Source: an uncultured delta proteobacterium (lineage in GTDB: Bacteria; Desulfobacterota; Binatia; Binatales; Binataceae). From it: a stretch of 64,000 nt of DNA. Location: the NCBI GenBank assembly GCA_963789115.1, contig CAWBJH010000001.1, positions 72,816-136,815 on the forward strand, given 5' to 3'. The notes beneath the pieces were generated by a model. The model had not been told where the DNA came from, ran no database searches, and saw only the letters and a program-made list of their open reading frames with translations. Below are positions 15-46,861 of this stretch, in pieces. Within the stretch, counting starts at the first letter, position 1. Every line of letters starts with the position of its first letter. The position numbers were made by a program, and so were the translations under genes.

Positions 15-1160
15 TTGGGACGCAATCCATACAGGGAACCTTTCACAGCTCTTGCGGATCGCCTGGGACTACATCTGAACGGGATACAGACTGCCGTCGC
101 CACTCCTACGTTCCTGCTTGCTTTTGAGCCGCTGGTAAACCTCCCACTGTGGCAAGCCTATTGGACATGGATCGGGCTCCTCGCAGCGTGCCTGGTGGCC
201 GCGCTGTGGCTGATGCTGGGCCGACACTCGTCGAGGTTGCCGCCGACAACCGCGCTGGTACTCGCCGCCTTTGCTATCCTTTACCCTCCGACCAGGGCCA
301 ACTTCGCGGCCGCCCAGAGCCAGATTCTCATCCTGCTTATTCTCGCCCTGATGATGAGGCTGCTGGAATCCGGATACGACGCCTCTGCCAGCCTGCTGCT
401 CTCCGGGGCGGTGCTTCTCCGTGCTTATCCTCTGCTTCTAGTCGGCTACTTTGTGCTCAAACGACGATGGAAAGTGGTCGCGTTCACGGTCGCAGGAGTT
501 TTGGCAGGAGGGATCGTGACCGTTGTGGGGATCGGTCCGGCCAGGGCCTTCTCATTCCTGGGCGCTGTGGGCCTGGCCCCAAGTAGGAACTTTCTCTCCT
601 TGAACGCTATTGGCTCTCTTCCTCCTCAGGTCGCGCATTCAACCGACAACGGATCCATACAGAATGCCATGACCATGCTCTTCCTTCTCCTGTATCCGCG
701 CCGGAGTAACCAGCTCGCAACCTCAATCGCTGCGCGGCTTACGGAAGTCATCCTCCTCGGGCTCACGCTGGCGGCTACCAGGAGTGACACCGATGACCAA
801 GCGCAGGAATGGCCGGAATTGTGTCTGTGGATTGCGGCGATGGTCATGCTCCCGCCGATCTCGTGGGAGCATTATCGCGTTCTCCTGTTGATCCCTTATG
901 CTCAGTTGGTGATCGCATACAACGAGGGGAAAGCCGGCCGGGCCGCGCTTTCGATGATCGTAGTCAGCTACTGTCTGACGATAGTGTTCGATGTCGCGAG
1001 TATGGGCCTGAGCGTTCCCGCAAAGGGCGTTCGTATACTCGATTTGAAATGGCTGCCGCCGCTGGTCTTGGTGCAGTTGATGGTGCCGCTGAGCGCGTAC
1101 GTCGCCGCTTATTGGACGATCAAAGGCGGGACGACGCGGCGCGTAGCCGCTCAAGCCTAG
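15..1160 (+). CDS. Polytopic integral membrane protein, possibly a GT-C/DUF2029-like glycosyltransferase. The reading frame stays open to the window start, so the gene is probably 5'-partial
   Basis: Long ORF with many hydrophobic helices and an R-AYPLLL-type motif. The codon at 15 is TTG with no upstream in-frame stop. Confidence 0.4.
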   Translation: MGRNPYREPFTALADRLGLHLNGIQTAVATPTFLLAFEPLVNLPLWQAYWTWIGLLAACLVAALWLMLGRHSSRLPPTTALVLAAFAILYPPTRANFAAAQSQILILLILALMMRLLESGYDASASLLLSGAVLLRAYPLLLVGYFVLKRRWKVVAFTVAGVLAGGIVTVVGIGPARAFSFLGAVGLAPSRNFLSLNAIGSLPPQVAHSTDNGSIQNAMTMLFLLLYPRRSNQLATSIAARLTEVILLGLTLAATRSDTDDQAQEWPELCLWIAAMVMLPPISWEHYRVLLLIPYAQLVIAYNEGKAGRAALSMIVVSYCLTIVFDVASMGLSVPAKGVRILDLKWLPPLVLVQLMVPLSAYVAAYWTIKGGTTRRVAAQA

Positions 1161-1175
1161 CTACGATCGCGACAA

Positions 1176-2819
1176 GTGGCCTTGGCACAAACATCGCTGC
1201 GCCCCTTGCTCGAATCATCGGGCCCCGGCCGCGCGCGGGCCGCGCCCATTTCGCTGGTACGCTACTCGCCCTACCTGATCCTGGTGCTGGTGATCGTGGC
1301 GGATACTAACCGCTGCGCGGACCCCGACCTCTGGGGCCATATCCGCTTCGGCCAGGCAATTCTCGCCACTCGCCATCTGCCGGTTCGCGATCCTTACTCC
1401 TACTCTGCCGCGGGTTACCTCTGGCGCGATCACGCATGGCTCTCCGAGGTCGTAATGGCCGGCTTTTACGGGGTGCTCGGCGTAGTCGGACTGAAGATCA
1501 TGAAGGTTGCGCTGTGCGCCGCGACGATCATCCTGATGGCGCTGGCGGAGGGCGAGAGCGGCGCGCCGTCCGGGGTGCAGCTCGCGGTGCTGACCGTGGC
1601 GGCGGTGGCGCTGGCGCCGCAGATGCAGTTCCGGCCGCAGTTGTTCACGTTCGCAATGCTGGCCGCGATCATGTGGATGATCGCGCGCGACGACAACCGC
1701 CGCCGCGGCCGGCTGTGGATGGCGATCCCGATGCTCGCGGTATGGGCCAACCTGCACGGCGGCTTCATCATCGGTCTGGCCGCGCTCGGGATTTACGCCG
1801 GCTTTGCGATCCTGGAAGACTTGCCCGCCGGCCGCGGCTTGGGCCGCGGCGTAGTCCTGCTCGCGATCGCGCTCGGCGGGGCGCTTGCCACCTTGACGAC
1901 TCCCTACGGCCTCGGCTCGTGGTCGGCGGTGGCGCAGACGCTGAGCAGCCCGATGACGCGGCTCGCGGTGGCGGAGTGGCAGCCATTTTCCGCCACGCTC
2001 CGCGAAACGTGGCGCGAGTCTCCGTGGGCGCTGGTCTATTTCGCCTGCGCGATCGCGATGTTCGCCGCGCTCTGCGCCTCGGTGATACGGGCGCCGCGCG
2101 CGGGTGGGGCGGGACCCGCCGCGGTCGCAATCCTGATGGCTGGTGCGACGGTCTTCTCCGGCCGCAACATGGCGCTATTCGTTGTGACCGCGGTCGGACC
2201 GCTGGCGCGGCGATGGGCCGCGATGCGAGAGGGTGGGGCGGGCGTCCCTGCCCGCCATCCCAGGGCGGGCACGGAGGCCCGCCCCACTGCTGATGTCGGC
2301 GCAGCGCGACAGGCTGCCGCCAAAAGCAGTGTGCATCCGCTACTCGCGGTCGCGGCAGCGACCGCGTTGGCCGCATACACGGGGTTGTTCTCGACCCGGC
2401 TCAGGGAGGTCACACCGTGTCCCGCGGGCGCCGTCGCCTTCATGGATAGCCACGGTCTGCACGGCAACATTCTGAATGAGTATTCCTGGGGCGAGTACCT
2501 GATCTGGCACGAATGGCCGCGGTCGCGAGTGTTTATCGACAGCCGCTACGAGACGGTCTACCCGAAACAGGTGATGAGCGACTATCTCACTTTCTTCTTC
2601 GACCGCCCAGGCGCCGACAAGGTATTGACCGGCTATCCGCACGACTACGTTCTGGTTCCCCCAAAATCCGGTGCCTATCGGGTAACCGCCCGAAGCAGGG
2701 ATTGGAAGCTAATCTACCAGGACCCAATTTCAACGCTCTTCGCCCGCGCTAATTCAGCGGCAGCAAAGGTCCCGGGATTGCCGGCCAGCGGACCCAAGCC
2801 GTCGAACCTGTTTCCGTGA
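1176..2819 (+). CDS. Large polytopic membrane protein with a C-terminal soluble domain. Putative GT-C-type glycosyltransferase or membrane protein of unknown function
   Basis: 547-aa ORF with more than 10 hydrophobic segments. It lies directly downstream of the previous membrane protein on the same strand. Confidence 0.4.
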   Translation: MALAQTSLRPLLESSGPGRARAAPISLVRYSPYLILVLVIVADTNRCADPDLWGHIRFGQAILATRHLPVRDPYSYSAAGYLWRDHAWLSEVVMAGFYGVLGVVGLKIMKVALCAATIILMALAEGESGAPSGVQLAVLTVAAVALAPQMQFRPQLFTFAMLAAIMWMIARDDNRRRGRLWMAIPMLAVWANLHGGFIIGLAALGIYAGFAILEDLPAGRGLGRGVVLLAIALGGALATLTTPYGLGSWSAVAQTLSSPMTRLAVAEWQPFSATLRETWRESPWALVYFACAIAMFAALCASVIRAPRAGGAGPAAVAILMAGATVFSGRNMALFVVTAVGPLARRWAAMREGGAGVPARHPRAGTEARPTADVGAARQAAAKSSVHPLLAVAAATALAAYTGLFSTRLREVTPCPAGAVAFMDSHGLHGNILNEYSWGEYLIWHEWPRSRVFIDSRYETVYPKQVMSDYLTFFFDRPGADKVLTGYPHDYVLVPPKSGAYRVTARSRDWKLIYQDPISTLFARANSAAAKVPGLPASGPKPSNLFP

Positions 2820-2962: not shown

Positions 2963-3835
2963 CTAAATCAGCCGCAGTTCCTTCATTACCGCGCGCAGCT
3001 TTTCGGCGGGGCCGGGGGACATCTGGGCCAGCGGCATCCTGAGCTCCGCGCTGCACTTGCCCATGAAGGCGAGCGCCTGCTTGACGGGAATCGGGTTGCT
3101 CTCCAGGAACAGCGCGCGCATCAGCGGCAGCATCTTGAAGTGAATGTCCCGCGCGCGCGCGTAGTCGTCGGCCAGTGCCGCCGCGACCAGCTCGTGCATC
3201 TCGCGCGGCATCACGTTGGTGACCACCGAAATCACGCCGCTGGCGCCAAGCGCCATCATCGGCAGGGTCATCGAGTCGTCGCCCGACAGGATCGTCAGGC
3301 GATCGCCGCACAGCCGCCGGATGTCGGAGATCTGATCGATCGAGCCCGACGCCTCTTTCACGCCCACGATGTTCTTGATTTCGCAAAGGCGGGCGAACGT
3401 CTCCGGCAGTATATTGGAGCCGGTGCGGCCCGGGATGTTGTAGGCGATCAGCGGCAGGTCAACGCTAGCCGCGATCATCTTGTAGTGCTTGAAAATTCCG
3501 TCCTGGGTCGGCTTGTTGTAGTAAGGTGAAATCAGCACCGCGCCGTCCGCGCCGGCGGCGCGCGCGAAGGTTGTCAGCCGAATCGCCTCGGCCGTCGAGT
3601 TGGAGCCGGTCCCGGCCAATACCGGAACCCGCCTGTGCGTCTGCTCGATTGCGATCTTGATTATCTGCTCGTGCTCGAGGTGGGTGAGCGTGGCGGATTC
3701 CCCGGTCGAGCCGCAGGGAAAGATCCCGTCCACGCCTCTCTGTATCTGCCATTCGATGATCTCGCGCAGCGCGGTCTCGTCCACCGCTCCGTCGCGAAAC
3801 GGGGTCACGATCGCCGACAACGCACCGTTGAACAT
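2963..3835 (-). CDS. dapA: 4-hydroxy-tetrahydrodipicolinate synthase
   Basis: The translation MFNGALSAIVTPF...GSTGE...YNIPGRTG matches DapA along its full length. The start is reset to the internal ATG at 3835. The upstream 88 aa of the ORF are Arg-rich noise. Confidence 0.9.
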   Translation of the reverse strand: MFNGALSAIVTPFRDGAVDETALREIIEWQIQRGVDGIFPCGSTGESATLTHLEHEQIIKIAIEQTHRRVPVLAGTGSNSTAEAIRLTTFARAAGADGAVLISPYYNKPTQDGIFKHYKMIAASVDLPLIAYNIPGRTGSNILPETFARLCEIKNIVGVKEASGSIDQISDIRRLCGDRLTILSGDDSMTLPMMALGASGVISVVTNVMPREMHELVAAALADDYARARDIHFKMLPLMRALFLESNPIPVKQALAFMGKCSAELRMPLAQMSPGPAEKLRAVMKELRLI

Positions 3836-18781: not shown

Positions 18782-18871
18782 GTTGATTGGATGCTCCAGT
18801 GGGGGTAAAGTCGTTTTCAATTACAGCGAGAATGGGAGGTAACGAGGTAGCCAAATAGCAATGTAACGGAG

Positions 18872-19045
18872 AGTAGCGCCAGGACTCACAATCGTGAGTT
18901 GACGAGGTGGAAGCTTATCGAACAATTCGGCGGATGGCTTCCCGGTTCCACGATCGTTAGAGGCGGACAAAACCTGCGGGCGACCGCGCGACAACAACCG
19001 TCTCAAGTGGGCGTAGCAAATCGCTCCGCTACGACCTTCTAAACT
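18872..19045 (+). ncRNA. glmS_ribozyme: glmS ribozyme (GlcN6P-dependent self-cleaving riboswitch). The predicted cleavage site is between A18875 and G18876
   Basis: AGCGCCAGGACU(P1: CACAAUCGUGAG)UUGACGAGGUGGAAGCUUAUCGAACAAUUCGGCGGAUGGCUUCCCGGUU matches the glmS ribozyme core. It is immediately 5' of glmS and the local GC is lower. Confidence 0.85.
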
Positions 19046-21039: not shown

Positions 21040-22901
21040 ATAGGGGGTAGCGGCGGACCGCTACTCCCCTGCCACACCACCGGACATGCGGGTCCGCATC
21101 CGGCGGTTCGGAAGGTTGAGGTTAATCGGCAAGGCGAGGAACTCCGAGTCGGTCGTAGTAGCGGATGGTGAGTCCGGTCTGGACCAGCTTGGCAGCGCGA
21201 TACCACCAGCGCCGTCCGGTGACAGCGGCCTCGGCCGCCGCGACGTGAGGCAGTCCGAGTCTACGCAGCTCGGTGTAGATTTTGGGGCCACGCTTCCACT
21301 GCTTGAGTTGCAGCGCACGCAGACGATGGCGAATCCACTTGTCGTGGTCAGCGAAGGCTCCCGGTGTATCCGCCAGTTGGAAGTACTGCTTCCATCCCGG
21401 CAGATAGCTCCGTAGCTCCGCCACCACCGTGCGCAGACTTCGCCCGCCGCTGCGCCGGGTAATCTGGCGCACCCGTTGCCTGAGCATCGCGGTGGCCTTG
21501 GGAGCGACGCGGCGCATGACCGCACCGCCCTTGCCGTACCAGAAGCTGAAGCCAAGCAAGCTCCGCTTCGATACCGGCGCCACCGCGCTCTTTTCGCGGT
21601 TGACTCGTAGCCGGAGCCGCGCGTACAGACGCTCCAGCGCCGTCATTACCCGCTCGCCCGCGCGCTTGGACCGCACGTACACATTGCAGTCGTCGGCATA
21701 GCGGACGAAGGCATGGCCGCGCTTCTCCAACTCCTTGTCGACCTCGTCGAGCAGCAGATTGGCCAGCAGCGGTGACAGTGGTCCGCCCTGCGGCGTCCCC
21801 TCCAGGCGCTCCACCACTACCCCGTTGGCCATCATGCCGGCCTTGAGGTAGCGGCGGATTAATCGCAGCAGGCGGCTGTCGCCGACTCTTCTCGCCAGCC
21901 TTCCCATCAGCACATCGTGATTGACGCGGTCGAAGAATTTCTCCAAGTCCACGTCCACCACCCAGCGCCGGCCTTCCCTGACGTAGCGCTGCGCGGATAA
22001 AACCGCGTCGTGGGCGCTGCGCCCCGGTCGAAAGCCGAAGCTGTGCTCCGAGAAGCTGGGGTCGAATAGCGGCTGCAGCACCTGCAGGATGGCCTGTTGG
22101 ATAAGCCGGTCGAGCACGCACGGGATGCCCAGTTCGCGCATCCCGCCGCCCGACTTGGGAATCTCCTGCCGCCGCACCGGTTTCGGCTGGTAGGTGCCGC
22201 CCAGCAGTTGCTCGCGCACCCCTGACCAGCGCTCCATCAAGCATTGCGGCAGTTCTTCCACTGTCATCCCATCGACCCCGGGGCTGCCCCGGTTCTCCCG
22301 CACCCGCGCCAACGCCGCCTTGACGTTGCCGCGCGCGACCACCTGCTCCATCAGGTGGTCGTCTCCCGAGCGCACCTTCCCGTTCGTCATCGTCGGCGCT
22401 TCGCCACTTCGCCCAGCCCTCGGAGCTTCACTCCTGGGCTTGAACGCAAGTTCCGCTTGCGCGGAGTTCCGGCGCCTGGCGCGGTTCGGACTCACGATGG
22501 TTTCGCTCTCCCTTCCGTTCGGCCCTTCACCAACTCGGCTTTCAAGGCCCTGCCCTCTCCGGCTGGCTACTACGGCCTCGGCTGACTTCTCGCGCCGCCT
22601 TATGGCGTCACCCTTCCAGGCGCAGGGCGAGATCTCCCCAGGTAAGACTCCGTGACCTTCCCCGCACAACCGCCGGATCTACGCAGTGGCTCCTTGGCCG
22701 CGAGGGCTTCGCGGTCTTTTGCCCGCTCGCCCTGAGCCACCGCGCCTTGTATCCGATTCCTGTTCGTCGGCTCGCGGGTTTGCTCCACGCTTCTTTCAGC
22801 GATTGCCTCGCGGCTCATCGCCTTGCGCTTCGCTAGTGCTCGCTGCGGTCTGCTCACACAGGGGACTTTCACCTCACAAGTCACGCGTCGTGCTGGGCAC
22901 A
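21040..22901 (-). mobile_element. Bacterial class C (IIC) group II intron, about 1.86 kb, with boundaries approximate at the 3' end
   Basis: The 5' GUGUG lies directly after the U-tract of a rho-independent terminator. The RT/maturase ORF is internal. Domain V- and VI-like hairpins lie downstream of the ORF at about 21030-21095. Confidence 0.75.
21122..22390 (-). CDS. Group II intron reverse transcriptase/maturase, about 422 aa, with no endonuclease domain
   Basis: RT motifs including YADD and a C-terminal X/maturase region. The start is set to MTNGKVRS. The upstream part of the long ORF covers intron RNA domains I-III. Confidence 0.85.
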   Translation of the reverse strand: MTNGKVRSGDDHLMEQVVARGNVKAALARVRENRGSPGVDGMTVEELPQCLMERWSGVREQLLGGTYQPKPVRRQEIPKSGGGMRELGIPCVLDRLIQQAILQVLQPLFDPSFSEHSFGFRPGRSAHDAVLSAQRYVREGRRWVVDVDLEKFFDRVNHDVLMGRLARRVGDSRLLRLIRRYLKAGMMANGVVVERLEGTPQGGPLSPLLANLLLDEVDKELEKRGHAFVRYADDCNVYVRSKRAGERVMTALERLYARLRLRVNREKSAVAPVSKRSLLGFSFWYGKGGAVMRRVAPKATAMLRQRVRQITRRSGGRSLRTVVAELRSYLPGWKQYFQLADTPGAFADHDKWIRHRLRALQLKQWKRGPKIYTELRRLGLPHVAAAEAAVTGRRWWYRAAKLVQTGLTIRYYDRLGVPRLAD

Positions 22902-42655: not shown

Positions 42656-44990
42656 ATGGACGTCCCATCGATGAGCCCCTATCAGGCGATTCGCGACCAA
42701 TTCTACGGCAACCGTCTGCTGTTCGGCGATCCCGCCGACCGCGGCGTGGTCGCGATTGAGATCGTCCCGCCCAATCAGGTCGAGGCCGTAAAGCGGGTCG
42801 AGGGGAAAGTGGTCCGCGAACGCCGTCCTTTGAGGCTCTTCGCGGTGCTCGCCGACCGCGCGCTGCTCGAGGGTTTCAAGGGTCCGCACGCGATAGCGGA
42901 GCTCAAGGGCGACTTCAACTTCCACCACCTGGCGACCTTCGCCGCGCTCGATTCGCTCGAGGCTGCCAAGCGTCATCTCCGGCGCGTCAGCGGCAAGCCG
43001 CCGGGCGCTCGCGACGCGCCCTACCTGGTGCTTGCCGATCCAGTTGAGCAGCACCTGATGCTGACCGGGACGACATTCTTCATGGGGATGGAATTCGCCC
43101 AGCTCCATCGGATGCAGATCGATATCGAGACTTACATCAGTCCGGGCTTCGAGTTCCCCTCTGCCGCGCGCGAGGGCGACCGCGTGGTCGCAATCGCGAT
43201 CACCGACTCGGCCGGCTTCGAGCGCGTGCTGTCGGGGGCTGAGATGGACGAGCGGGCGACGCTCGAGGAGTTCGTACGGATCGTGCGCGAGCGCGATCCC
43301 GACGTCGTCGAGGGCCACAACCTGTTCCGCTTCGACCTCGAGTACCTCGAGGCCCGGGCGTGCCGCCACGGGGTCAGGCTGACGCTGGGCCGCGACGGGA
43401 GCGAGCTCAGCGCGCGTGCCTCGCGGCTCCAGATCGCCGAGCGGGTGATCGCGTATCGCCGCTACGACGTGTGGGGCCGCAGCATTGTGGACACCTGGAT
43501 CCTCGCCCAGCATTACGACATCGCAAGCCGCGAGCTGGAGGGCTTCGGGCTCAAGGAGCTGGCGCGGCACTTTCGTATCGCGCGGCCGGGCCGCGTTTAT
43601 ATCGACCCCTCCCGCATCAGCTCCTACTACGACCATCGCCGCGACGAACTCCTGGAGTACGCGCTCGACGACGCGCGCGAGGCGGGCGCGCTGGCCGAAA
43701 GGCTCGCGCCGAGCTACTTCGTGCAGGCGCAGATCTTCCCGTACTCGTACCAGAACGTTTACCTGCGCGGGAACGCGACCAAGATCGACGCGCTGATGAT
43801 CCGCGCCTACCTGGCCGCGGGCCATTCGATCCCGGCCTGCAACGAACCGCGCGAGGTCGCGGGCGGCTATACGGAGATCCGGCGATGCGGCGTGGCGCGC
43901 AACGTGCTCCATTGCAACGTCACCTCGCTGTACCCGTCGCTGATGATTCAGTACGGGCACGGCCCTGGCGCCGACCGGCTCGGCGTGTTCCTGGAGATGC
44001 TGCGCGGTCTGCGAAGCTTCCGCGTTCAGGCCAAGGCGCTGGTGCGCGAGCTCGAAGGTCTAAAGCGGCGCGACCTCGAGGCGCTCCAGCAGACCTTCAA
44101 GATCCTGATCAATTCGTTCTATGGCTATCTCGGGTTCGCGCTCGGCCATTTCAACGACTTCGCACAGGCCAACGCCGTGACCAGGCGCGGGCGCAACCTG
44201 ATCCGGCGCGCGGTCAAGGAGCTCGAGGCGTGTGGGGCGAGCGTGATCGAAGTCGATACCGACGGTATCTACTTCGTTGCGCCGCCGGGCGCCGACGCCC
44301 AGGCCGCGGCAGACGCACTGATCGGGGCGGTCGGCGCCGCGATGCCCGAGGGGATACGGCTGGAGATCGACGGGTGCTACACCGCGATGTTCAGCTACAA
44401 GATGAAAAACTACGTGCTGCTCGACGAGAGCGGCGTGATGACTATTCGCGGCTCCGGGCTCAAGTCGCGCGGGCTGGAGCGCTTCCAGCGCCGCTTCATG
44501 GAGGAGATGTTCCGGTTGCTCCTGGAGGAACGGCGCGAAGCGATTCCGGCGCTCTTCGAGGAGTACCGACGAAGGCTCGAACATCACGAGTTCGAAATCA
44601 CGGGCCTGATGAAGACCGAGACCTTGCAGGATTCGCTCGAACGTCTACCGCGCCAAGCGAGGCGGCAAGCGCCGCAACGTGTCGGCCGCCTACGAGTTGG
44701 CGCTCAAGTCCGAGCGCCCGTACTTAAGCGGCGACCAGATCTCGTACTACGTGACCGGCCACAGCCCCAAGGTCAAGGTTGCCACGTCGGCGAAGATGGC
44801 TGCGGAATACGACCCGGCCAATCCCGACGAGAACGTCGAATACTACCAGGCCAAGCTCGCGGAGCTTTACCACAAATTCAGACCCTACGTGGAGCGCGAG
44901 GGACTGTTCGCGGCCTCTCTGCTCGAAGCCGCGCCGGAGCCCGAACAGACCGAGATGTTTGGCGCGCCCGCCGCAAACACGAGGGAGTAG
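42656..44990 (+). pseudogene. polB: Family B DNA polymerase (Pol II-like), interrupted by a +1 frameshift at about 44643. Motif A reads N-V-T-SLYPS instead of D-x-x-SLYPS
   Basis: Exo I motif IDIET, Exo II motif HNLFRFD, Exo III motif YALDD, and the KILINSFYG and VDTDG motifs. The C-terminus ...RRNVSAAYELALKS...ISYYVTG continues in another frame (44679-44990). Confidence 0.75.
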
Positions 44991-45022
44991 CGGCATCGGG
45001 TGGCGTTCCGGCGCGGACTCGT

Positions 45023-45045
45023 TTTTCACTTTTCACTTTTCACTG
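45023..45045. repeat. Left inverted repeat flanking the hicBA cassette (TTTTCACTTTTCACTTTTCACTG)
   Basis: AT-rich TTTTCAC iterons. An inverted partner lies at 45755-45775. Confidence 0.6.
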
Positions 45046-45269
45046 CTTAACATGTTTCGCCAATCCAGCACGCGGACCGCGCGGTGTAGCGCGCCACAGC
45101 CGGCGAAGATGCAGACCACCCGCTTTTGCTTTTTTCCCTGCGCTCTGAAAAGTGTCAGAGGGCTGTGCCGCCGGCAGCGACAAAGAACCGTAGGGCAGGT
45201 ATGGTGGGCCGAGCCGGCAAGGGCGATGCGTCGTCGGCGCTGCGGGGTTCAACCGGAGGAGTGTGCACG

Positions 45270-45479
45270 ATGCGTACCTTCAACATAGTGATTGAGCGGG
45301 ACCCCGACACCGGCCTGTACGTTGGTTACATCCCTGGCTGGCCGGGCGCCCACAGTCAGGGAAAAAACCTCGACGAGCTCAGGCGGAATCTTCAAGAGGT
45401 GGTCGAGATGCTCCTCGAGGACGGCGAGCCGAAGTTGGAGTCTGAGTTCGTCGGAATCCAAACCATCCGAGTGGCGTAG
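45270..45479 (+). CDS. hicB: HicB-like antitoxin (UPF0150 fold, short form)
   Basis: MRTFNIVIERDPDTGLYVGYIPGWPGAHSQGKNLDEL... after a GGAGGA RBS. It lies immediately upstream of hicA. Confidence 0.75.
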   Translation: MRTFNIVIERDPDTGLYVGYIPGWPGAHSQGKNLDELRRNLQEVVEMLLEDGEPKLESEFVGIQTIRVA

Positions 45480-45481
45480 CC

Positions 45482-45706
45482 ATGGGCTCAATCCCCGTCC
45501 TCAAGCCGCGCGAAGTGGTCGCGCTGCTCGAGCGGCTGGGGTTCGTGGAGGTGCGTCAGCGCGGGTCTCATCGCCAGTACAGGCACGCCGACGGGCGCGG
45601 AACGACTGTGCCCTTCCACGCCGGCAGCGATATCTCACCGACGTTGCTGCGAAAGATCGCGCGCGACATCGGAATAACCGTCGAGGACCTGCTCGGTCGC
45701 CTGTGA
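45482..45706 (+). CDS. hicA: HicA mRNA-interferase toxin (YcfA-like)
   Basis: 74 aa with RGSHRQY...H motif and an LERLGF N-terminus. Confidence 0.8.
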   Translation: MGSIPVLKPREVVALLERLGFVEVRQRGSHRQYRHADGRGTTVPFHAGSDISPTLLRKIARDIGITVEDLLGRL

Positions 45707-45754
45707 GCGTTGCCGGACCTCACGCGGACCACTCGCGCTGTGCTGTATGGCAGG

Positions 45755-45775
45755 CAGTGAAAAAGTGAAAAACAG
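45755..45775. repeat. Right inverted repeat flanking the hicBA cassette (CAGTGAAAAAGTGAAAAACAG)
   Basis: It is the reverse complement of the left repeat with one or two mismatches. Confidence 0.6.
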
Positions 45776-45787
45776 AAGGGACGAGAC

Positions 45788-46861
45788 ATGCCGCAGGAAG
45801 CGTCACAACTCGACTGGAACCGGATAAAGAAGTTCGCCGAGTCGACGATGAGCGACCTCGGTATCGCCGCGCAAAGCGCGCTGAGCTACATCGGCGACAA
45901 GCTTGGCATCTTCCGCGCACTCGACGGTGCGGGATGGGTCACCAGCGCTGAGCTGGCTGGGCGCACCGGGCTCAGCGAGCGCTACATCCGCGAGTGGCTG
46001 GGCGCGATGGTAGCGGCGCGCTACGTCGAGTACGACCCGGCGGCGTGCAAATTCTTCCTCCAGCCGGAGCACGCGATGGTGCTTGCGCGGGACGATTCGC
46101 CGTTTTTCTTCGGCGGCTTCATGCAAATGATCGTGCCCAACGCCGGCATGGCGCCCAAAGTCGCCGAGGCGTTCAAGACCGGCAAGGGCGTGCCGCAGAG
46201 CGAATACCCGCCTGAAACCTTCGAGGCTGTCGAGCGTCTCTCAGCCTCGATGTATCAGGACCGCTTGGTCCGCAAGTGGCTGCCGACGATGCGGCAGGTG
46301 GTAACGGCGCTGTCCGAGGGCGGCGCCGCGCTGGATGTGGGATGCGGCAGCGGGCGGGCGGCCATCGCTCTCGCCAAGGGATTCCCGAAAGCGCGCGTGT
46401 CAGGCTACGACGCGCATCCGGAGTCGATCGAGCGCGCCCGCAACAACGCGCGTGCCGCGGGCGTGCAGGGGCGGGTGAGTTTCGAGACGGTCGATTGCAC
46501 CAGGCTGCCGGCCGAGCGATGGGACCTGATCACCACCTTCGACGTGGTCCACGAGTCGGTCGATCCGGTCGCGCTACTCAGCTCGATTCGCGACGCGCTC
46601 AAACCCGACGGCACCTACGTGATGCTCGAGATGAACATGTCGGCGAATCTCGAGGACAATATCAACCCGCTCGGGCGCCTGATGTACTCGATATCGACGC
46701 TCTACTGCATAACGGTATCGCTGGCGGGCGGCGGCCCCGGAATCGGCGCCGTGATGGGCGAGCCGAAGGCGCGCGAGCTGTGCCAGCAGGCCGGCTTCAC
46801 CAGGTTCCGCCGCCTGCCGATCGAAGACGCCTTCTCGGCGCTGTACGAAATTCGCCGGTGA
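45788..46861 (+). CDS. Class I SAM-dependent methyltransferase with an N-terminal winged-helix dimerisation domain
   Basis: LDVGCGSG motif I and an N-terminal HTH-like region. Confidence 0.75.
   Translation: MPQEASQLDWNRIKKFAESTMSDLGIAAQSALSYIGDKLGIFRALDGAGWVTSAELAGRTGLSERYIREWLGAMVAARYVEYDPAACKFFLQPEHAMVLARDDSPFFFGGFMQMIVPNAGMAPKVAEAFKTGKGVPQSEYPPETFEAVERLSASMYQDRLVRKWLPTMRQVVTALSEGGAALDVGCGSGRAAIALAKGFPKARVSGYDAHPESIERARNNARAAGVQGRVSFETVDCTRLPAERWDLITTFDVVHESVDPVALLSSIRDALKPDGTYVMLEMNMSANLEDNINPLGRLMYSISTLYCITVSLAGGGPGIGAVMGEPKARELCQQAGFTRFRRLPIEDAFSALYEIRR

Follow-up and report, generated by a model that had tools for sequence, protein, structure and literature searches.

A hicBA toxin-antitoxin pair between inverted TTTTCAC arrays at the polB/methyltransferase junction of a Binataceae lineage

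In an uncultured soil bacterium (a Candidatus Binataceae MAG) a small hicBA toxin-antitoxin (TA) pair lies between two short arrays of TTTTCAC units that face each other in inverted orientation. Are these arrays the ends of the DNA that carried the TA genes to this place, are they binding sites that control the genes, or are they simple sequence without a tie to the genes between them? The question reaches beyond a single locus: the movement of tiny TA operons between distant genomes is poorly understood, and a clean empty site together with an inverted repeat at the edges of an insert offers a rare snapshot of one TA transfer. The original prediction was drawn from the window, that is, the whole 64-kb stretch of DNA analyzed here. 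It saw in the arrangement a mobile or recombination-delimited cassette, and in the left repeat a possible HicB operator.

The locus and its inverted arrays

All genes of the locus are on the plus strand, in the order polB, left array, hicB, hicA, right array and methyltransferase gene. The placement of a hicB-hicA cassette between polB and a methyltransferase gene was correctly predicted, since all four genes were confirmed by Pfam. The features are as follows.

42656-44990, plus strand: polB, family-B DNA polymerase gene (Pfam DNA_pol_B and exonuclease domains)
44991-45775, plus strand: lineage-specific insertion of about 785 bp (empty polB/methyltransferase junctions in relatives)
44997-45021, plus strand: GC-rich hairpin of -9.9 kcal/mol, followed by the U-rich left array (ViennaRNA fold)
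45022-45045, plus strand: left arm, T5CAC T4CAC T4CAC TG (direct sequence reading, motif search)
45046-45053, plus strand: inner extension of the left arm, CTTAACAT (inverted-repeat search, pair I24)
45054-45269, plus strand: non-coding leader, private to the lineage (no conserved ORF, Pfam match, Rfam match or significant fold)
45270-45479, plus strand: hicB, single-domain antitoxin of 69 aa (Pfam PF21748, PDB 2yzt)
45482-45706, plus strand: hicA, toxin of 74 aa (Pfam PF07927, PDB 1whz)
45707-45746, plus strand: non-coding tail 3' of hicA (absent from other hicBA loci)
45747-45754, plus strand: inner extension of the right arm, ATGGCAGG (pair I24)
45755-45775, plus strand: right arm, CA GTGAAAAA GTGAAAAA CAG, in units of 8 nt (direct sequence reading)
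45776-46861, plus strand: Shine-Dalgarno region and gene for an Rv2258c-like wHTH and class I SAM methyltransferase (Pfam, synteny)

In the window, polB carries a frameshift caused by one additional A at 44640 when compared to L001, a contig of the same species in which polB is intact and encodes a product of 777 aa. The left arm starts 31 nt past the polB stop codon, and the intervening stretch is GC-rich. From the left array to hicB, 223 nt are free of genes. A tail of 48 nt leads from the end of hicA to the right array, and a hairpin spans 45735-45760. The methyltransferase coding gene (45788-46861) is packed tightly against the right array. Its GAAGGGACGAGAC-ATG directly adjoins the array, which occupies the sense strand 12-32 nt ahead of the start codon, and its Shine-Dalgarno sequence GAAGGGA shares its first G with the last G of the right arm.

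The TA module is an ordinary member of the short-HicB group of HicAB systems. HicB reached 29.1 bits against PF21748 (UPF0150/HicB N-terminal domain, cut-off 27.3) and 25 bits against PF15919, slightly under the cut-off of 27, and its match to HicB_lk_antitox spans only positions 1-47 of the 123 profile positions. PDB matches included 2yzt (TTHA1756, 67 aa; E = 5e-6) and the HicB structure 6g1c (E = 0.007), and HicB aligns to the N-terminal part of 6g1n, namely residues 3-56 of the 142-aa Burkholderia HicB. Neither the Pfam nor the PDB matches contained an RHH or HTH DNA-binding domain in the 69-aa protein. HicA was recognized by PF07927 with 77 bits (cut-off 27, E = 1.2e-21) and matched PDB 1whz (E = 3e-13); its translation contains the GSH motif (...QRGSHRQY...). 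hicB lies directly 5' of hicA in the same orientation, separated by a gap of 2 nt. When compared with locus L084 of a sister lineage (see below), pN/pS was 0.013/0.063 for hicB and 0.006/0.083 for hicA. Both genes are under purifying selection, with a ratio of ~0.1-0.2 between the two lineages, and judged from this ratio hicBA is presumably functional.

The pair had been described as AT-richer, which turned out to be marginal: the description applies to hicB (58.6% GC) and fails for hicA (66.2%), measured against 64.6% in the window. GC3 amounts to 0.77-0.81 in hicB/hicA and 0.86-0.87 in the neighbor genes. Only the arrays themselves are truly AT-rich, with a GC content of 32-33%.

Inverted TTTTCAC repeats around hicBA are indeed present, at 45022-45045 and 45755-45775. 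We searched the 64-kb window with the 14-mer TTTTCACTTTTCAC, allowing up to two mismatches, and recovered a single site, against an expectation of 0.09 from shuffled sequence. The window has 11 TTTTCAC/GTGAAAA heptamers, five of them inside the two arrays, and local alignment of the insert edges gave z = 6.2, a value reached by none of 200 shuffles. Because of these results, the arrays are not explained by chance.

The right arm reads CAGTGAAAAAGTGAAAAACAG as a whole string. The periods of the two arrays differ, being 7 bp on the left and 8 bp on the right, and the spacing between the arrays is 708 bp. The arms are distinguished by one T and one entire unit, and converting one into the other needs two slippage events plus three mismatches. 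The inverted repeat extends ~10 nt inward (TGCTTAACAT versus ATGGCAGGCA), where the left inner extension together with the preceding TG matches the right arm at seven of ten positions; pair I24 of the inverted-repeat search is 17 nt long and 82% complementary. As a pattern, the arm including the start of its inner extension was written TCACTTTT(T)CACTGC, and its non-repetitive part TGCYTRMCAT. A literature search for the arrays as sequence strings found no published record.

Empty junctions in Binataceae and the sister lineage

We compared the locus with 79 polB loci from other Binataceae species, in which polB is 64-79% identical. hicBA was found downstream of polB in none of them. In 37 of the 79 loci the methyltransferase gene comes next after polB, with a spacer of 30-370 nt that contains neither hicBA nor arrays, and the synteny of polB and methyltransferase gene in ~50 Binataceae loci identifies the latter as the ancestral downstream neighbor. 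A collection of 5.8 billion proteins yielded the nearest methyltransferase relative, L164, where only 14 nt (TGAAAGGAATTGGC) separate the methyltransferase ATG from the polB stop codon; as its methyltransferase is 83% identical, this empty site is only an approximate reference for the state before insertion. In L165 (methyltransferase 77% identical) the spacer is 63 nt long and contains an 11-bp perfect palindrome, and the spacer of L005 carries GC-rich hairpins. The 37 loci together with L164 and L165 make up ~39 Binataceae species or contigs with an empty junction, and none of these has hicBA or arrays. The empty site in relatives for which the original prediction had proposed to look at this junction was therefore found, and no Binataceae relative came to light that carries hicBA at the same place without the repeats. 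A casposon, which polB beside inverted repeats might bring to mind, was rejected: in all 79 relatives polB is a conserved chromosomal gene in syntenic position, and the repeats do not enclose it.

Since the junctions of the relatives are empty, without hicBA or arrays, the ~785 bp at 44991-45775 are, by this comparison of sequences, an insertion specific to the lineage, and the repeats sit at its edges or close to them. Homology to the empty site of L164 sets in again exactly at the end of the right arm: the Shine-Dalgarno sequence of L164, GAAAGGAATTGGCATG, aligns to the window sequence immediately right of the right array. The left boundary of the insertion is uncertain and lies somewhere in 44991-45022, which places the left arm at most 31 nt from the left edge. 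Given the 31 nt to the polB stop codon, the left arm may be subterminal.

In Binataceae, DNA has landed repeatedly at the polB/methyltransferase junction. Thirteen polB loci carry unrelated cargo of 0.5-6.7 kb between polB and the methyltransferase gene; one of these cargos, in L055, is an independent Phd/YefM-ParE TA pair. Flanking inverted repeats or split palindromes were found around none of the 14 other inserts at this junction, and the repeat is therefore not a by-product of a hot spot that accepts DNA. The same result weighs on an alternative in which the arms are host DNA. The ancestral spacer would have held a long AT-rich hairpin, TTTTTCACTTTTTCACTGC...GCAGTGAAAAAGTGAAAAA, and leader, hicBA and tail would have entered its loop as foreign DNA by illegitimate recombination. 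Such an event could do without a target-site duplication and without further copies of the arm, hairpins or palindromes are common in the spacers of relatives, as in L165 and L005, and with 13 other cargos including the Phd/ParE pair the junction is a hot spot for insertion. However, the ~39 empty spacers contain neither the palindrome nor a T4CAC array, and the other inserts are not bordered by split palindromes, so that we regard a split host hairpin as unlikely.

We scanned metagenomes with HicA and obtained 80 loci in which it is 73-99% identical. Arrays were present in one of them, L084, and absent from the other 79 (HicA 73-90% identical). Nucleotide homology of the other hicBA loci is limited to 45257-45710, which comprises the ribosome-binding site and the two ORFs. 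No neighbor gene recurs around 78 related hicBA loci, the closest hicBA relatives lack flanking inverted repeats, and searches of plasmid and phage collections gave no matches. HicA has 6936 homologs with E <= 1e-10; named hits at 85-89% identity include Rokubacteria, Vicinamibacteria and Planctomycetota. Because HicA is 85-92% identical across contigs of Binatota, Acidobacteriota (Vicinamibacteria), Rokubacteria and Planctomycetota, the bare hicBA bicistron is widely exchanged among genomes. As homology stops at the limits of the bicistron and no neighbor recurs, leader, tail and arms stem from another source than the bicistron; the insert contains ~350 nt of non-coding DNA common to no other hicBA locus. 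The idea that the cassette moves as a unit is not supported by these 79 related loci, which share the two ORFs only and have no arrays. Likewise, the suggested search for other TTTTCAC-flanked cassettes came up empty: no second copy and no other array of the T4-5CAC kind occurs in the 64-kb window or in the related loci that were fetched (1.3 Mb, including 1.1 Mb from Binataceae and the 80 hicBA loci).

How the arms have fared since the insertion can be followed in close relatives. Contigs L001-L004 from other samples are essentially identical to the window. L084 has the same polB/hicBA/methyltransferase locus with a 99% identical HicA and differs from the window by about 5% in nucleotides; as a lineage it is roughly 6-8% diverged. 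The insertion was present in the common ancestor of window/L001-L004 and L084, which together form one species-level lineage, and predates their split. In L084 the left array has two units compared to three in the window, and the right array carries three substitutions in 21 nt (CAGTGAAAAAG to TAGCGAAAGAG). In this comparison the arms behave like simple sequence prone to slippage, and their inverted symmetry is not being kept up. The remaining left units and the next 30 nt (45030-45073) show no substitution in 44 nt where ~4 are expected, a conservation that was spotted post hoc (p ~0.01-0.02); this left-arm region may have some function, for instance as promoter or terminator. The rest of the leader (45074-45269) has 19 of 196 nt substituted (9.7%), which is near neutral and approximately the synonymous rate. 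Its longest ORF, 70 aa on the minus strand, is interrupted by a stop codon in L084. The methyltransferase gene of L084 has suffered a frameshift and a partial deletion.

The same assemblies speak to the possibility of an invertible segment, in which a site-specific recombinase would use the inverted repeats as crossover sites and turn over the 0.7-kb hicBA segment, thereby switching expression of hicBA or the methyltransferase. The geometry suits this, with inverted repeats of 20-30 bp and a segment of <1 kb directly upstream of a gene. Yet the segment has one and the same orientation in all six assemblies (window, L001-L004 and L084), a recombinase gene is absent within -10/+3.7 kb, and the right arm is decaying in L084. 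Inversion is therefore very improbable.

What the arrays may be

HicB consists of the N-terminal fold only, and an operator for HicB at the arrays is hence unlikely. Because the protein lacks a DNA-binding domain, the usual antitoxin-operator autoregulation is not to be assumed. The proposal that the left repeat serves HicB in this way fares no better when the arrays are considered, as they occur at no related hicBA locus outside the lineage and as the right array repeats every 8 bp and decays in L084.

If HicB does not bind DNA, regulation must come from elsewhere, and the T4CAC units might be sites of a trans-acting protein that controls hicBA and/or the methyltransferase gene. The closest analogy is the omega repressor of pSM19035. 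This RHH protein recognizes WATCACW heptads of 7 bp, arranged directly or inverted, and controls a TA operon in which the antitoxin itself is no DNA-binding protein (PMC9499535). Read as TTTCACT, the units match WATCACW at six of seven positions, omega arrays likewise use both orientations (PMC9499535), and the lack of substitutions in the left array and the next 30 nt would fit a conserved site. On the other hand, the cassette contains no regulator gene and its leader no conserved ORF; no neighbor gene recurs at the 78 related hicBA loci, none of which has arrays. Furthermore, the 8-bp period of the right array breaks heptad phasing and 3 of its 21 nt are substituted in L084, the arrays stand 708 bp apart and are not contiguous, and the number of units varies. 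Such a regulatory role, which we propose by analogy, has in our view a slim chance of being correct.

Consensus scans for sigma-70 promoters and terminators called no promoter and marked nothing at the arrays or the hairpin. The hairpin at 44997-45021 followed by the U-rich left array could nevertheless, as folded in silico, form an intrinsic terminator of polB. A promoter assembled by hand (-35 TTCACT, 17 nt, -10 TAACAT) was discarded, as it is lost in the two-unit allele of L084. The 223-nt leader was also considered as the site of a third gene that had been overlooked or of a decayed regulator, and this was rejected, with no Pfam match even at E <= 10 and no conserved ORF. The leader had no match in Rfam, and its RNA fold is not significant (z = +1.4).

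The motif itself is not unique: 54 IMG/VR viral contigs contain (TTTTCAC)n/(GTGAAAA)n arrays as simple repeats between genes. The concern that the repeats are widespread simple sequence is not borne out within Binataceae, as the arrays are absent from the 1.3 Mb of related loci. The viral (GTGAAAA)n arrays are never located within a same-strand ORF, and in the 100 nt ahead of a same-strand ORF start they are three times as frequent as random positions. An incidental role of the right array as an A-rich leader is therefore conceivable by analogy.

These viral arrays bring up coincidental simple sequence as an explanation. A chance inverted match of ~9 bp (TTTTCACTG/CAGTGAAAA) at both junctions would have been expanded separately by slippage, with no mechanistic tie to the insertion. 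The unit length of 7 versus 8 nt between the arms, a copy number that varies by lineage, and the repeated origin of such intergenic repeats in 54 unrelated viral contigs are in line with this. Against it, the same rare AT-rich unit would have had to expand twice, exactly at both edges of the insert, which is improbable; the genome has 65% GC and no other such array was seen in 1.3 Mb, and the inverted repeat runs on into non-repetitive sequence. We therefore consider coincidence distinctly unlikely.

In one viral contig, L202, inverted TTTTCAC/GTGAAAA arrays surround a module of 2.8 kb with a tyrosine integrase gene. A general link between arrays and an integrase was dismissed, because that integrase is found in L202 only. 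L202 gives a weak hint of a more far-reaching reading. Binatia and other soil bacteria would contain a family of small cassettes, so far undescribed, that are bounded by inverted repeats; the T4-5CAC arrays would be its functional ends, and an unlinked recombinase or transposase that recognizes short tandem units would move or flip the cassettes. We see this as a long shot. If true, the family would be a concrete vehicle for the rapid cross-phylum spread of bare TA bicistrons.

A cassette that is currently mobile or competent for recombination is not supported. No target-site duplication abuts both arms, the closest being GGAC with 2-3 nt of slack on each side, and no transposase, recombinase or integrase was found within -10/+3.7 kb. 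Of the predicted mobile or recombination-delimited cassette, the delimited insertion with its empty site has held up; a mobile family, a duplication and a recombinase did not materialize.

The reading that we tentatively prefer, and consider quite possible if short of probable, takes the arrays for relics: they would be the ends of an inverted-repeat-bounded insertion that happened once. Non-autonomous elements of this build, with passenger genes and without a transposase, are a known class (PMC4133298). In the common ancestor of the lineage ~785 bp entered the interval from the polB stop codon to the methyltransferase ribosome-binding site, and according to this scenario the T4-5CAC arrays would be the two ends of the inserted DNA. 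These ends may be relics of a ~26-33 bp terminal inverted repeat of a non-autonomous vehicle, in the manner of mobile insertion cassettes (MICs) or MITEs, which would have acquired hicBA as a bare bicistron before its single landing at this junction. Afterwards, the arms would have been altered by slippage, through gain or loss of units and of a single T, with the right arm drifting. The arrays would now have only secondary roles and would not be HicB operators. The left arm would provide the U-tract after the polB hairpin, the conserved 44 nt may hold the hicBA promoter, and the right arm would form an A-rich leader just 5' of the methyltransferase ribosome-binding site.

On present evidence, the locus represents a single ordinary acquisition of hicBA, with an inverted repeat that is unexplained and decaying. 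It teaches little further, except that the junction is a recurrent landing site that includes a second TA insertion (L055). If the arms were found to recur around other cargo, a new non-autonomous vehicle would be defined.

Comparison with known systems

The TA module itself resembles the HicAB systems with a short single-domain HicB, such as TTHA1756/TTHA1913 of Thermus thermophilus, with which it shares the HicA domain, the GSH motif and hicB upstream, and it matches the Thermus structures 2yzt and 1whz. In contrast, the characterized autoregulating HicB from Burkholderia (6g1n) has a C-terminal RHH/HTH domain that is missing here. With the omega heptad operators of pSM19035, the locus has in common a 7-bp unit with a TCAC core, the use of both orientations and a TA pair whose antitoxin does not bind DNA. 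The left array consists of three contiguous 7-bp units, as in omega heptads, whereas the period of the right array is 8 bp and the units number only two to three. Unlike at omega operators, no RHH gene is present at the locus and no protein homology was detected.

Xer/dif modules (pdif) and integron cassettes with TA genes are similar in that a small TA cargo is located between recombination sites. The 28-bp dif-like site of Xer/dif modules is absent here; only 7 nt of the left arm, ATGTTAA, resemble the dif consensus. In integrons, attC is composed of the R''/L''/L'/R' cores (GTTRRRY) at the 3' end of the cassette. No attC core GTTRRRY was found at the boundaries of our insertion and no integrase nearby. 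The arrays also partly resemble the DnaA box, the dif/XerD arm and the 'CAGTG' ends of Tc1/IS630-type elements. These likenesses were rejected, being partial, of wrong geometry or too short. To our knowledge, arms made of tandem 7-8-nt units are not typical of IS ends.

The closest parallels are MICs, MITEs and TIME-bounded transposons, which are small, have no transposase, carry passenger genes and end in terminal inverted repeats of ~25-35 bp (PMC4133298). Compared to MICs and MITEs, the locus lacks a target-site duplication, a second copy in the fetched loci and an identified cognate IS. What it shares with them is an inverted repeat at or near its ends and empty sites in its relatives.

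Cargo at the polB-methyltransferase junction

The hicBA cassette lies between polB and a SAM methyltransferase gene, and we found that in 13 other species of Binataceae this junction carries unrelated inserts, 0.5-6.7 kb in size (polB loci L008, L017, L024, L025, L026, L045, L048, L052, L055, L064, L070, L072 and L083). One of these inserts, in L055 (3278-3872), is a Phd/YefM-ParE toxin-antitoxin pair that was acquired independently. The junction looks like a recurrent landing site. Flanking inverted repeats were found around none of the 13 other inserts.

Directly 5' of the methyltransferase, about 20 Binatus-like species have in common the element TTGATCGATACTGC-N6-8-GGAGGAAAAC-ATG (carriers include L011, L015, L016, L018, L027-L029, L035, L037 and L082, among others), which resembles a promoter or leader. 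A different clade (L013, L031, L046, L049) shares AAAYCTGCTAGTGAAA just 3' of the polB stop codon.

State of the flanking genes and RNA elements

In the window, polB contains an extra A at 44640 (GCTCGAACGTCT versus GCTCGACGTCT in L001, a contig of the same species), which shifts the reading frame, so that the C-terminal 103 aa are encoded in a separate ORF (44679-44990). Either the allele is a true pseudogene, or the assembly contains a homopolymer error here. Downstream of the cassette, the methyltransferase gene is frameshifted and partly deleted in L084 (whole contig), which represents a sister lineage, and a 1-nt deletion is present in the methyltransferase of L004, another contig of the window's species; jointly, the affected sites correspond to window positions 45791 and 45959. 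Either gene decay in parts of this population or assembly errors may account for these differences.

The non-coding leader between the left array and hicB contains a small hairpin, CTCTGAAAAGTGTCAGAG (45150-45167). It includes GAAAAGTG, an 8-nt match in reverse orientation to the junction between two array units, which may be due to chance. Elsewhere in the window, the following RNA elements were detected:

18864-19014, plus strand: glmS ribozyme (84 bits)
22522-22817, minus strand: group II intron RNA domains (121.6 and 41 bits)

Heptamer arrays in viral contigs

Arrays of (GTGAAAA)n with at least 3 units were found in 54 IMG/VR viral contigs (L167-L220; GC 0.27-0.66). In L202, inverted arrays of TTTTCAC x4 (344-371) and GTGAGAA/GTGAAAA x5 (3190-3223) bracket a 2.8-kb module that encodes:

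378-1556, minus strand: tyrosine integrase
within the module: two HTH ORFs and a LuxR-type regulator

Both arrays are closely flanked on the outside by a copy of GGGTT(T)C(C)TCGC, a direct repeat that is imperfect and statistically not convincing. The L202 integrase is absent from the other array-bearing contigs in the set of 54. Throughout the set, the arrays are in every case same-strand intergenic. They show enrichment shortly upstream of ORF starts and are often embedded in stretches of further tandem heptamers (GTGAAGA, GGTCAGT, GATCATT).
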